Shown: positions 10,762 through 34,212 of the stretch, piece after piece
Layout: every line of letters begins with the position of its first letter
How positions within the stretch are numbered: the stretch's first letter is position 1
NCBI GenBank assembly: GCA_005883775.1
Contig: VBEU01000049.1
Coordinates: 1-42,611, forward strand
From: Chloroflexota bacterium
Lineage (GTDB): Bacteria > Chloroflexota > Limnocylindria > P2-11E
Direction: 5' to 3'
DNA: 42,611 nucleotides
Made by a program: the position numbers and the translations under genes
Notes under the pieces: generated by a model
Told to the model about the DNA's origin: nothing
The model's input: only the letters and a program-made list of their open reading frames with translations
Databases searched by the model: none

Positions 10762-10834
10762 GGGGCTGTAGCTCAGCTGGGAGAGCGCATGAATCGCACT
10801 CATGAGGTCAGGGGTTCGATCCCCCTCAGCTCCA
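10762..10834 (+). tRNA. tRNA-Ala (anticodon CGC)
   Basis: Hand-folded cloverleaf: acceptor GGGGCUG/CAGCUCC with G3:U70, D arm GCUC-AGCUGGGA-GAGC, anticodon arm CAUGA-AUCGCAC-UCAUG, T arm AGGGG-UUCGAUC-CCCCU, and discriminator A. CCA is not fully encoded. Confidence 0.9.
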
Positions 10835-10835
10835 C
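10799..10835 (+). repeat. Direct repeat copy 1 (3' half of tRNA-Ala(CGC)), candidate att site
   Basis: ctcatgaggtcaggggttcgatccccctcaGctccac matches 12796-12832 at 36/37 positions. Confidence 0.85.
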
Positions 10836-10913
10836 CGAACTCGCCTAAAGCCGCACGATTCAGGCGGTCGCCGGCGGCGGGCAAAATGAACGCGCTGGGT
10901 TGCGGTTGGCTCC

Positions 10914-31011: not shown

Positions 31012-31419
31012 TCAATTCGTGCGCCGGCCCTGTTGCTGCTGCTGCATCTGAACGATCGCGACGGGCAGGCCCCCGATGGAGCTGCCGTCGACCTCAAGGT
31101 CGAACTTGTGCGTCCCGTAGCTGGTGAAGCTCATGTTGTTCAGCTCGACGATGACGTTCACGTCCTGTCCGGCGACGGCGTGCACCGAGATCTCGGGCGG
31201 ATTCGGCATCGCCTGCTGCCCGTCCGGCCGCAGCAGGCGCACCTTGACGGTGTGTGCGCCAACCTCGAGCCCGAGGATCGCCACGACGAACATCCGGGGA
31301 TGCTGCGCCGGTAGCCCGCTGACCGAGATATTGCGGAAGATCCCCATCAGGCTGACCTTCCCATCCTGTCCGACGAGGGCGTGGTCGCACAAGGCGGCGA
31401 GCCGGATCTCGGCGGTCAC
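31012..31419 (-). CDS. Hypothetical 135-aa cytoplasmic protein, translationally coupled to leuS
   Basis: The GTG start overlaps the leuS stop (GTGA). No TM segment or signal peptide. Predicted beta-rich, with a Gln-rich tail (MQQQQQGRR). I recognise no family with confidence. Confidence 0.6.
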   Translation of the reverse strand: MTAEIRLAALCDHALVGQDGKVSLMGIFRNISVSGLPAQHPRMFVVAILGLEVGAHTVKVRLLRPDGQQAMPNPPEISVHAVAGQDVNVIVELNNMSFTSYGTHKFDLEVDGSSIGGLPVAIVQMQQQQQGRRTN

Positions 31420-33854
31420 GAGGGCCGCCGCGTGACGAAGTTCACCAGGCGGTCGGGCACAAAGATCGTTCGCCCGGGCTCGCGGCCGTCGAGTGCCGCC
31501 TTCACCTTCGGGCTCGCCATCGCAAGCTTCTCGGCGGCCGCTTGCGAGATGCCGGCCGGGGCGGTGATGCGGTCACGCAGCTTTCCATCGATCTGGATGA
31601 CGATCGTGACCTCGCCCGGGGCCGCGATCGCTGGATCGAACACCGGCCAGGTCTGTCGATGGATCGAGCCGCGCCCGCCGCGGCGCTCCCAGAGCTCCTC
31701 AGTCATGTACGGGGCGAAGGGCGCGAGCAGCAGAAGCAGCGTCGCCACGCCCTCGTCGCGGCTCGGACCGGTCGCGCGCTGCAGCGCGTTCGACAGCTCC
31801 ATCATCGCGGCGACCGCGGTATTGAACGAATAGGTCTGCAGGTCTTCGGTGACCTTCGCGATCGTTCGGTGAACCACCCGGTCGATATCGGGATCTCCGG
31901 GGCCCGCCGGCTGAGCCTCGGACTGGGCCATCTCCCAGACTCTGCGCAGGAAGCGATGCACGCCCTCGATACCGGAGGCGTCCCAATCGGCGCCGTCCAC
32001 CCAGGGACCCATGAACATCATGAATAGGCGCAGCGTGTCGGCGCCGTACTTCTCGACATACACGTCGGGGGTCTCGACGTTCCCGCGCGACTTCGACATC
32101 TTGCGGCCCTTGAACACGATCGTGCCCTGATAGCGGAAGCGCAGCGCCGGCTCGTCGAACCACAGCTCCCCCATATCTCGGAGCGCCTTGGCCATGAAGC
32201 GCATGTAGAGAAGGTGCAGGATCGCGTGCTCCACACCGCCGGTGTATTGCTGCACCGGCAGCCATTTCCTTCCGAGCTCCTCGTTCATGAACGCCTCGTC
32301 GTGCTTGGGGTCGACGTAGCGGTACATGTACCAGGAGGAATCCACGAACGTGTCCATCGTGTCGGTATCGCGGCGCGCCGATCCCCCGCACTTCGGACAT
32401 GTCGCGTTCACAAACGACGCGACGTGGCTCAAGGGCGAGCCGCCCCGTCCGGTGAATTCGACGTCGCGCGGCAGCACCACCGGGAGCTGCTCGTAAGGTA
32501 CCGGGACCGCGCCACAGCGTTCGCAGTGCACGATCGGGATCGGCGTGCCCCAGTAGCGCTGGCGAGAGATCAGCCAGTCATGGAGCCGGTAGGTGACCGA
32601 GGGCCCGCCGATGCCACGCTTCTTCGCTTCGGCGCCGACCGCGGCTTTCCCCATCTCGCTGCGCATGCCAGTGAACGGGCCGCTCCGCACCATGACGCCC
32701 TCGCCGACGTACGGCGCCTCGAGCGCCGAGTGCTCGGCGCCGTCGGGGCTGATCACCTCGCGAATCTCCAGTCGGTGTTTCTTCGCGAAGGCGAAATCGC
32801 GCTCGTCGTGACCGGGCACCGCCATGATCGCGCCCGAGCCGTAGGTGGCGAGCACGTAGTCGGCGATCCAGATCGGAATCCGCTCCCCGGTGAATACGTT
32901 CCGCGCGAACGCGCCGGTGTCGACACCGGTCTTCTCACGCTCCGCCGCGGCACGCTCGATATCCGCCATGTTGCGAGCGTGCTGGACGTATCGCTCGACC
33001 TCGGCGCGGCGTTTCGGCGTCGCGATCTTCGCGATGAGCGGATGCTCCGGCGCCAGCACCATGAATGTGGCGCCGCAGATCGTGTCCGGCCGCGTCGTAA
33101 AGAAGCGGATCTCCTCGCCGGGGTGCCCTTCGACCGGGAACGCGATCTCGGCCCCCTCGGACCGGCCGATCCAGTTCGTCTGTAAAACACGTACGCGCTC
33201 CGGCCAGTCCAGACCGTCGAAGCGCAGCAGCTCGTCCGCGTACTTGGTGATCCGGTAGAACCACTGCGTCATCTGCCGCTTCACGACTGGCGTGTCGCAA
33301 CGCTCGCACCGGCCGTTGATCACCTGCTCGTTGGCCAGTACCGTCTCGTCGCGCGGACACCAGTTGACGGGGGCGTCGGCGCGGTAGGCGAGCCCTTTCT
33401 CGTAGAGCTTCAGGAACATCCACTGATTCCAGCGGTAGTACTCCGGGTAACAGGTCACGACCTCGCGCCGCCAGTCGATCGCGGCGCCCATCCGATTGAA
33501 TTGCTCGCGCATGTGCGCCATGTTCTTTTCGGTCCATACCGCCGGATGGAGCTTTCGGTCGATCGCCGCGTTTTCGGCGTTGATCCCGAAAGCGTCAAAA
33601 CCCATCGGAAAGAGGACGTTGTGACCGCGCATGCGCAGGAAACGCGCGGCGGCATCCGGCGGCGCGAAGGCGTACCAGTGCCCCACGTGGATCTCGCCCG
33701 AGGGGTACGGGAACATCGTCAGGAAGTAGAAGTTCGGCTTATCCGAAACGTCCGGCGTGCTGTGGAGGCCGGACGAGGCCCAGCGCTCGCGCCACTTCTC
33801 TTCGATGGCGGCAGGCGTGTAGCGATCGATCTTCTTTTCCACTTCGCTCGTCAA
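31416..33854 (-). CDS. leuS: Leucyl-tRNA synthetase
   Basis: 812 aa. HIGH motif (PYPSGEIHVGHW), KMSKS motif (KMSKSRGN) and a CP1 editing domain. TTG start with an AGGAGG RBS 6 nt upstream. Confidence 0.97.
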   Translation of the reverse strand: MTSEVEKKIDRYTPAAIEEKWRERWASSGLHSTPDVSDKPNFYFLTMFPYPSGEIHVGHWYAFAPPDAAARFLRMRGHNVLFPMGFDAFGINAENAAIDRKLHPAVWTEKNMAHMREQFNRMGAAIDWRREVVTCYPEYYRWNQWMFLKLYEKGLAYRADAPVNWCPRDETVLANEQVINGRCERCDTPVVKRQMTQWFYRITKYADELLRFDGLDWPERVRVLQTNWIGRSEGAEIAFPVEGHPGEEIRFFTTRPDTICGATFMVLAPEHPLIAKIATPKRRAEVERYVQHARNMADIERAAAEREKTGVDTGAFARNVFTGERIPIWIADYVLATYGSGAIMAVPGHDERDFAFAKKHRLEIREVISPDGAEHSALEAPYVGEGVMVRSGPFTGMRSEMGKAAVGAEAKKRGIGGPSVTYRLHDWLISRQRYWGTPIPIVHCERCGAVPVPYEQLPVVLPRDVEFTGRGGSPLSHVASFVNATCPKCGGSARRDTDTMDTFVDSSWYMYRYVDPKHDEAFMNEELGRKWLPVQQYTGGVEHAILHLLYMRFMAKALRDMGELWFDEPALRFRYQGTIVFKGRKMSKSRGNVETPDVYVEKYGADTLRLFMMFMGPWVDGADWDASGIEGVHRFLRRVWEMAQSEAQPAGPGDPDIDRVVHRTIAKVTEDLQTYSFNTAVAAMMELSNALQRATGPSRDEGVATLLLLLAPFAPYMTEELWERRGGRGSIHRQTWPVFDPAIAAPGEVTIVIQIDGKLRDRITAPAGISQAAAEKLAMASPKVKAALDGREPGRTIFVPDRLVNFVTRRPS

Positions 33855-33875
33855 CTCGACCTCCTTTCAGCAAAC

Positions 33876-33908
33876 AAAAAAAGTCTTCCATCCAAGGGGA
33901 CGAAAGAC
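33876..33908 (-). terminator. Intrinsic terminator of the leuS T-box expression platform
   Basis: GUCUUUCGUCC-CCUU-GGAUGGAAGAC (33883-33908) followed by UUUUUUU (33876-33882). Its 5' arm overlaps the antiterminator 3' strand. Confidence 0.85.
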
Positions 33909-33946
33909 CTCCGCGGTACCACCCCAATTGAGAGCCGGTGTCCTAG

Positions 33947-34018
33947 TGGAGCTGGCGGGATTCGAACCCGCGACCCCCACACTGCCAGTGTGATGCGCTC
34001 CCACTGCGCCACAGCCCC
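33947..34018 (-). tRNA. tRNA-Ala (anticodon GGC), located inside the T-box leader
   Basis: Fold: GGGGCUG-UG-GCGC-AGUGGGA-GCGC-A-UCACA-CUGGCAG-UGUGG-GGGUC-GCGGG-UUCGAAU-CCCGC-CAGCUCC-A. It has G3:U70, U8, A14, G18G19, G15:C48, U33 and A37. CCA is not encoded. Confidence 0.9.
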
Positions 34019-34212
34019 GATGCTCTCCGCTCGAGCACGCTGATAACGGGCGTGACCCCGGCGAGGGCTAGCCGCCTAGCGGTTCGCACCCGCGGCTCCC
34101 GGGCGAGTTCCGCGCTCCTGCGACGCCGGCTTGCACCTGCCGCCGGCTCTCTTTTGTCGAGGAATTTCGCGTACTGCTCCCGTTCGTGGCCGTTGGCTCA
34201 AAAGTATACGGA

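Follow-up and report, generated by a model that had tools for sequence, protein, structure and literature searches.

The window analysed here—the whole 42,611-nt contig VBEU01000049.1 of a Chloroflexota bacterium (assembly GCA_005883775.1)—carries, upstream of the leucyl-tRNA synthetase (LeuRS) gene leuS, a T-box riboswitch leader that harbors an entire tRNA-Ala(GGC) gene within its fold. Judged from its sequence, this is very likely a working, leucine-specific, transcription-terminating leuS T-box with a genuine tRNA-Ala(GGC) in the apical loop of its Stem III. T-boxes and tRNA-Ala are each known families; it is their nesting that is new, and a comparison with related genomes shows that this nesting is real, conserved, and under selection. 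All positions given below are those of the window and, unless noted otherwise, lie on its minus strand.

The leader is a complete T-box. The Rfam T-box model (RF00230) matches positions 34196-33893 with a score of 94.7 bits, above the gathering threshold (GA) of 93 (E=1.1e-19), and the alignment covers the full model (positions 1-219), which places the leader in the family both by score and by coverage. The leader (33893..34196) departs from the model on a large scale only in the loop of Stem III, where 84 nt are inserted; it is complete and split only there. In the Rfam alignment, Stem I spans 34095..34190 and comprises the GA/K-turn region (34188-34177), a specifier loop with AGUA on its 5' side and GAA-CUC-G on its 3' side, the AG bulge AGAGAG (34152-34147), and the distal loop GGCAGGUGCAA (34141-34131). 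The specifier codon CUC (34105..34107), which occupies the model's specifier position in the alignment and is followed by the conserved purine G, is a leucine codon, and the amino acid that it specifies is therefore that of the synthetase encoded downstream. Then come the region of Stems II and IIA (34044..34094, with Stem II at 34092-34062 and the F-box CCGUUA of Stem IIA at 34049-34044) and, at 34022..34032, the purine-rich flank GAGCG followed by the 5' strand of Stem III, GAGAGC (34027-34022). Past the tRNA, positions 33928..33946 hold an 11-nt trailer CUAGGACACCG, the 3' strand of Stem III, GCUCUC (33935-33930), and an AA flank (33929-33928). The T-box sequence GGGGUGGUACCGCGG (33925-33911), with its UGGU bulge at 33921-33918, belongs to the antiterminator helices (33896..33925). 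An intrinsic terminator identified by a terminator scan and by minimum free energy (MFE) folding (33876..33910; hairpin 33910-33881, U7 33882-33876) competes with them, its 5' arm overlapping the 3' strand of the antiterminator. The leader thus has the specifier codon with its purine, the AG bulge/distal loop platform, the UGGN-bulge antiterminator, and the competing downstream terminator by which T-boxes are recognized. Next is leuS itself (31416..33865 including an AGGAGG ribosome-binding site at 33865-33860), which starts with TTG at 33854 and encodes an 812-aa protein with HVGH and KMSKS motifs and the LeuRS editing, tRNA-synt_1, and Anticodon_1 domains of Pfam. Looked up with either L or M as first residue, this protein has no exact database entry.

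The insertion is a tRNA in every respect that can be read from the letters. The Rfam tRNA model (RF00005) matches 34018-33947 with 66 bits (GA 29, E=2.6e-12), and ARAGORN calls a tRNA-Ala(GGC) at 33946-34018. The 72-nt molecule (33947..34018) has its GGC anticodon at 33986-33984 and displays the alanine identity pair G3:U70, the discriminator base A73, and canonical U8, A14, G15:C48, G18G19, U33, and A37. It satisfies RF00005 and an alanine acceptor alike: a cloverleaf, the identity elements for AlaRS, the tertiary positions, and compensatory changes in its stems. The 3'-terminal CCA is not encoded in the window, where CUA comes next; in relatives it is fully encoded in some cases and partly in many. 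Where tmRNA models match the tRNA, these are cross-matches within the clan, prompted by the alanine acceptor arm. Another alanine tRNA, a stand-alone tRNA-Ala(CGC) scoring 63.5 bits, is found 23 kb away at 10762-10836 on the plus strand. The idea that the nested tRNA might present its own A73-CCA end to the UGGU bulge in cis was rejected, since CCA is unencoded and the GGC anticodon does not match the CUC specifier; moreover, T-box sensing requires a free, unextended tRNA 3' end.

What holds the two elements together is Stem III, a helix of 6 bp from which the tRNA is separated by loop linkers of only 3 nt and 11 nt. Its flanks, GAGCG-GAGAGC...GCUCUC-AA, fit the motif 5'-RRRxG-Stem III-AA-3' that characterizes T-box discriminators (PMC7778990, PMC11404447). 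The first-pass annotation, made from the letters alone, had listed the conserved T-box elements on the minus strand upstream of leuS, read the leader as leucine specific, recognized a textbook 72-nt tRNA-Ala(GGC) between complementary hexamers, and placed it at the tip of a Stem III-like helix. The sequence, the Rfam alignment, and the LeuRS motifs bear this out: both halves align to the covariance model as a single T-box, ARAGORN and Rfam both accept the 72-mer, and the hexamers covary, as described below. A single detail needs correction, for although the competing hairpin and its U7 are as described, the terminator stem, given as 11 bp, has 13-15 pairs when G-U pairs are counted.

Covariation supports this architecture. 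For an alignment of 55 leaders, we counted pairs over the T-box structure of Rfam and the cloverleaf combined. Paired cells amount to 95.2%, against 87.6% after shuffling of columns and 41-48% with partners displaced by 1-3 columns; this percentage is inflated because the structure was derived from the first sequence, but counts of changes on both sides of a pair are not, and such changes occur in 32 pairs, a number reached by none of 500 shuffles. The helix around the tRNA shows both-side changes in five of the six Stem III pairs and has 97.7% of cells paired, as illustrated by the variants GAGAGC/GCUCUC, GAGACGC/GCGUCUC, GAUAGG/CCUAUC, and AAGAGC/GCUCUU. Within the tRNA, pairing is 100% in the acceptor, D, anticodon, and T stems, each of them including at least one pair changed on both sides, and G3:U70 is present in 55/55 leaders. 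On the riboswitch side, Stem I helices 1-5 covary, helices 6-7 (Stem II/IIA) are 93-95% paired with covariation, and pairing is likewise 100% in the antiterminator (helices 14-15), where 18 sequences have switched from GC to AU. The functional motifs stay put around these changing helices: the specifier CUC (C112 T113 C114) and the T-box sequence cores GGTGGTACC and GGUGGUACC are invariant, and GAA-CUC-G, AGAGAG, GGUG, and GGCAGGUGCAA are invariant or nearly so. Outside the alignment, in Ktedonobacteria, the flanks of the tRNA pair as 15-25-bp helices whose sequences are wholly different between species. An unconstrained duplex search for Stem III was informative only for these Ktedonobacteria; in the high-GC leaders of the window, L020, and L025, it returned spurious GC-rich pairings.

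The same nesting recurs across Chloroflexota. A LeuRS protein search with one genome per GTDB species yielded 80 loci with 92-51% identity, most of them labelled Candidatus Limnocylindria or Chloroflexota, an outcome that assigns the window to the class Limnocylindria. Of these loci, 68 have a tRNA-Ala(GGC) called by ARAGORN in the 700 nt upstream of leuS; in 5 of the remaining 12, the upstream flank is truncated. Nesting upstream of leuS is seen in 56 species-representative genomes, which belong to Candidatus Limnocylindria and to a second lineage (L058-L060) whose LeuRS is only about 55% identical. In these 56 loci, Stem I motifs precede the tRNA, which lies ~130 nt downstream of the AG bulge, and the gap between tRNA and T-box sequence is 14-131 nt, the trailer varying from about 8 to about 130 nt in other species. 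With Rfam run without gathering cut-off on the leaders of relatives, all nested loci submitted align to a full-length T-box across the tRNA, the match in L009 being in two parts. Such tRNA-spanning matches score 96.5 bits in L058, 93.9 in L059, 96.7 in L002, 88.5 in L005, 78.3 in L019, 67 in L010, 66 in L048, 64.8 in L015, and 63 in L042; further ones are found in L127 (98 bits), L201, and L202-L206.

A third nested lineage came from a pattern scan of metagenomes for a T-box sequence that has a non-A73 bulge and is preceded, at a distance of 24-54 nt, by a tRNA T-loop, a pattern that leaves UGGU T-boxes outside. At least 120 stretches were returned, and among the matches listed 6 contain a genuine tRNA. 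Five of these are chance juxtapositions without Stem I (e.g., tRNA-Trp-secE), and the other, L127, is again a leuS leader with tRNA-Ala(GGC) in Stem III; no other combination of nested tRNA and downstream gene is present among the matches listed in this non-exhaustive scan, from which UGGU T-boxes were excluded. The LeuRS of L127 is ~50-53% identical to all others, and its close homologues are named Ktedonobacteraceae. Nesting is found in 6/6 Ktedonobacteria loci examined, L127 and five more, including that of the cultured species Reticulibacter mediterranei, which sits on an 8.9-Mb contig, at positions 2498407-2505878 of BNJK01000001.1 in assembly GCA_016587455.1. The order is the same in 6/6 loci: tRNA-Ala(CGC), promoter, T-box with tRNA-Ala(GGC) in Stem III, leuS. 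The leader being located 3' of tRNA-Ala(CGC), the 5' domain of the T-box fills the spacer between two alanine tRNA genes. The tRNA-Ala(CGC), which lies ~60-120 nt upstream of the leader in 6/6 loci (L201 1881-1955; L127 4047-4119, minus strand; L202 425-500; L203 627-700; L204 524-600; L206 609-682), has its own promoter-like site in both loci scanned (L201 and L127). In every nested lineage, the GGC anticodon, G3:U70, A73, and the tertiary positions are retained.

Loci in which one element occurs without the other illuminate how the arrangement may have come about. In 12 loci of a further Chloroflexota lineage (L067-L080, LeuRS ~52% identical), a tRNA-Ala(GGC) stands directly upstream of leuS, a T-box is absent, and a -10 box is found 10-16 nt upstream of the tRNA. 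L054 retains an intact tRNA, but its T-box sequence is decayed and Rfam detects no T-box, which looks like a lineage losing its riboswitch while keeping its tRNA. Because the orthologue stands alone in the former and persists in the latter, the nested tRNA is an ordinary gene, which would presumably be expressed, processed, and aminoacylated. Conversely, the leuS T-box of L056 (Dehalococcoidia) scores 115 bits and contains no tRNA. Its Stem III (UCCCCGG/CCGGGGA, ~2830-2905) has a loop of about 50 nt, measured by eye, without tRNA-like features, and large Stem III loops may thus be a wider trait of Chloroflexota leuS leaders. Since the insertion point is identical in the three nested lineages, the simplest history is a single ancient origin followed by losses.

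The position of the promoter bears on whether riboswitch and tRNA belong to one transcript. A putative -10 hexamer for the whole leader, TATACT, is located at 34203..34208, 7 nt upstream of the start of the Rfam T-box. It is identical in nearly all of the ~50 related leaders that have the hexamer, and the upstream DNA differs, with at least three unrelated contexts, among them the end of rodA (in the window) and the start of a divergent gene. At the corresponding place, Ktedonobacteria leaders have a canonical TTGCCA/TTGCAA-17-TATAGT. From this we infer that leader and tRNA share one transcript from one promoter. As for its 3' end, a terminator hairpin with a U-run follows the T-box in 47/58 related leaders, which suggests that most nested leaders act at the level of transcription. 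Some ten leaders, L029, L032, L036, L040, L042, L044, L045, and L047 among them, have no U-run in the 100 nt past the T-box sequence. Here the antiterminator's competitor is a helix whose end lies within or beside a GGAGG Shine-Dalgarno sequence, and these leaders look translational.

The architecture and the conserved -10 box upstream of Stem I lead us to propose the following mode of action. A transcript initiated at the promoter (-10 TATACT, 34208-34203) would run through Stem I, Stem II, Stem IIA/B, the 5' strand of Stem III, and the tRNA, and would then continue through the 3' strand of Stem III, the T-box bulge and antiterminator, the terminator, and leuS. The tRNA would fold on its own, and, its acceptor stem joining its 5' and 3' ends, the 6-bp Stem III could close beneath it, which would make a tRNA an ideal cargo. 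The geometry of the riboswitch would be preserved, since sensing involves no part of Stem III but its base and the purine flanks. According to the T-box literature, only these parts contact the tRNA-antiterminator duplex (PMC7778990, PMC11404447) and that discriminator function depends only on the termini of Stem III (PMC11404447); the apex would therefore point away and could carry cargo. Stem I would capture tRNA-Leu(GAG) via CUC and its elbow platform. With uncharged tRNA-Leu, A73-CCA would pair with UGGU, the antiterminator would hold, and leuS would be transcribed, and with charged tRNA-Leu the terminator would form. Because the tRNA is upstream of the terminator, each initiation would yield a tRNA-Ala precursor whatever the switch decides, and the charging of tRNA-Leu would govern read-through only. 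RNase P would cut the 5' end of the tRNA, and its 3' end would be completed either by RNase Z or by exonucleases and the CCA-adding enzyme acting together. Excision, which we place after the co-transcriptional decision, would part the Stem I domain from the expression platform, leaving a Stem I-Stem II fragment and a leuS mRNA whose newly formed 5' end lies shortly upstream of the terminator hairpin. The same architecture would also lengthen the interval available for the decision.

Several observations sit uneasily with this proposal. A consensus scan of the window recovers no full -35/-10 promoter, and no -35 box is recognizable there. In R. mediterranei, a promoter-like TTGCCG-17-TACAAT lies within the leader (L201 2173-2201), 45 nt upstream of the tRNA. 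Single-sequence MFE folds of the whole leader and of the Stem III-tRNA module, computed separately, give neither the cloverleaf nor the T-box fold (z-scores -1.5 and -0.7); such folds are uninformative for an RNA of 68% GC, which is why we relied on covariation instead. A translational switch needs an intact leader, and in the translational-looking leaders excision of the tRNA would destroy a switch that works after transcription. Finally, Stem III pairs with most of the 5' leader of the tRNA, and pairing of the leader can slow or inhibit RNase P (PMC9433436).

The promoter-like site of R. mediterranei, which overlaps the F-box/pseudoknot region, is also an argument for regarding the locus as two overlapping but independent transcription units, with the tRNA produced mainly from an internal promoter on transcripts lacking Stem I, so that tRNA and riboswitch would have DNA but no RNA in common; another is the -10 box 10-16 nt upstream of the tRNA in relatives without T-box. 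We regard this as distinctly unlikely. No site of this type is present in L127, the other Ktedonobacteria locus scanned, or in Limnocylindria, and the 55 aligned leaders have no conserved TAnnnT between Stem I and the tRNA, a region that is constrained by the IIA/B pseudoknot and RRRxG. The conserved -10 is upstream of Stem I, and transcripts starting there would contain the tRNA even if an internal promoter existed. It is quite improbable, too, that the insert is only tRNA shaped—a structural or regulatory module that recruits RNase P or AlaRS or docks on the Stem I platform, with the decoding copy encoded elsewhere. Although the GOLLD RNA offers a precedent, since it contains a tRNA whose maturation is proposed to be inhibited (PMC12990946), a scaffold would need no intact anticodon loop, whereas GGC, G3:U70, A73, and the tertiary positions are kept in every lineage, and the orthologue stands alone with its own -10 box (L067-L080) and survives T-box decay (L054).

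The reverse view, that a T-box split by tRNA insertion is a dead relic and that leuS is no longer regulated by tRNA-Leu, appears highly improbable. It could invoke the Rfam score, barely above threshold in the window (94.7 vs 93) and below it in many relatives, and the loss of the T-box sequence in L054. However, the low scores reflect the penalty for the insertion, the functional motifs are invariant, and all helices are kept with compensatory changes down to about 50% LeuRS identity; a relic would decay, as indeed happened in L054. As for the joining of a tRNA to a T-box leader by faulty assembly or binning, the general risk attached to metagenome assemblies and several clearly wrong labels of metagenome-assembled genomes (MAGs) are all that speaks for it. 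With identical junctions in about 60 independent assemblies from different studies, the 8.9-Mb contig of a cultured strain and contigs of >1 Mb included, the nesting is not chimeric, and the misassembly that the first-pass annotation wished to see excluded is refuted, its probability being negligible.

A more elaborate variant of the proposed working, which we rate as rather unlikely, is that nesting is itself part of the control, with Stem III gating the access of nucleases so that tRNA-Leu charging would govern tRNA-Ala(GGC) maturation as well as where the leuS mRNA begins and how stable it is. The state of the helix would then be set by uncharged tRNA-Leu locking the discriminator, and the switch would be reset or ended by RNase P/Z cutting. 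The role of gate would fall, in Ktedonobacteria, to the 15-25-bp extension of Stem III, which resembles a processing stalk of the rRNA type. Such gating, if it occurs, would also explain how the translational-looking leaders can work. Were the nested gene, in addition, the sole tRNA-Ala(GGC) of these genomes, a riboswitch leader would be the only source of an essential tRNA.

T-box riboswitches are the textbook example of one RNA reading another, their structure and kinetics being known in detail, and to our knowledge every T-box described so far is a purely regulatory leader. In agreement with the first-pass annotation, which knew of no T-box with an embedded tRNA, our full-text literature search, in which subscription coverage was partial and an earlier mention might have been missed, found no account of any riboswitch, T-box or other, with a tRNA gene inside it. 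Scores below the Rfam gathering threshold probably explain why the nesting went unnoticed: the T-box scores 46-92.6 bits in Ktedonobacteria other than L127 (5/6 loci) and in most of the Limnocylindria loci with longer inserts. Because the insertion is penalized, pipelines that apply the threshold leave most nested T-boxes unannotated, and neither genome annotations nor T-box databases are likely to include them.

Compared with canonical transcriptional T-boxes (RF00230; tyrS, glyQS, and leuS of Bacillus subtilis), the window leader has the same modules in the same order upstream of the cognate synthetase gene. The difference is in the apical loop of Stem III, about 5 nt in the Rfam consensus, which here takes in a whole 72-nt tRNA of a different identity (Ala) and in relatives holds up to about 130 further nt. 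Transcription of tRNA genes together with mRNA is also familiar, as in the thrU-tyrU-glyT-thrT-tufB operon of Escherichia coli, in which tRNA co-transcribed upstream of a translation-related gene is released by RNase P and 3' processing. The tRNA-Ala(GGC)-leuS units of L067-L080 are likewise composed of a tRNA upstream of a translation-related gene; in both, however, the tRNA is in a plain spacer, whereas in the window it lies inside the fold of a tRNA-sensing riboswitch. A bona fide tRNA sequence nested in a larger structured noncoding RNA is known from GOLLD, but that large multimeric RNA of unknown function is not cis-regulatory, and its tRNA is in a single-stranded junction instead of capping a helix (PMC12990946). 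The closest parallel within T-boxes is the met leader of Staphylococcus aureus, which tolerates a large insertion (150 nt, three stem-loops) between its decoding and discriminator parts and is freed from the mRNA by RNase III cleavage, which sets mRNA decay (PMC7913692). Unlike in the window, that insertion is no known RNA gene and the cleavage is in the terminator helix; its L I-III elements are reported by the authors to be absent from all other T-boxes analysed (PMC7913692). In the B. subtilis thrS leader, an endonucleolytic cut just upstream of the terminator similarly parts the sensing domain from the mRNA (Condon et al. 1996, in PMC8096251). In thrS, it is RNase Y/J that cuts, and the site is single-stranded, with no tRNA gene involved and no useful RNA freed, in contrast to the proposed excision from the window leader.

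If the proposed working is correct, a regulatory leader would also carry a housekeeping gene, and the terminated transcripts that are "wasted" in other T-boxes would become productive. The leader would face opposing needs—to be intact for sensing and to be cut for tRNA release—that must be separated in time, and the timing of a co-transcriptional decision relative to RNA processing would become directly testable. The three Chloroflexota lineages amount to a natural experiment on the Stem III apex, which tolerates inserts of 85 to about 200 nt, and since the nesting is present in the cultured R. mediterranei, the system is experimentally tractable.

Some further features of these loci deserve mention. 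In the window, the genes on the minus strand between 28357 and 37772 are, in this order, PBP2, RodA/FtsW, the T-box with its tRNA, leuS, DUF6941, and ComEA-like and ComEC-like genes, the ComEC-like open reading frame (ORF) carrying a metallo-beta-lactamase domain. Translation of leuS and of the DUF6941 ORF may be coupled, since the stop of the former shares 4 nt (31416-31419) with the start of the latter. In L064, a weakly scoring nested T-box (1254-1540, 46 bits) lies 1.4 kb upstream of leuS, and a GNAT-like ORF and an S-adenosylmethionine (SAM)-methyltransferase-like ORF are found between them (1551-2974). MAGs labelled Bathyarchaeia, Udaeobacter, Thermoanaerobaculia, and Saccharimonadales (L001, L006, L044, and L051) contain a leuS 69-92% identical to the Limnocylindria gene, and these mislabelled contigs are probably binning contamination in public MAGs. 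In some species, an extra 70-115 nt separates the nested tRNA from the 3' strand of Stem III (L002, L005, L010, L012, L019, and L022, alignment columns ~374-500; L009, L015, and L048). One type of these inserts has a common GAGGACGAG...CAGGAAGCCGCAGCUUCCUG...GAGGACGAG followed by a second hairpin, and another opens with a perfect 10-12-bp hairpin. Rfam matched no known RNA family to the inserts, which may be processing signals or small mobile hairpins.

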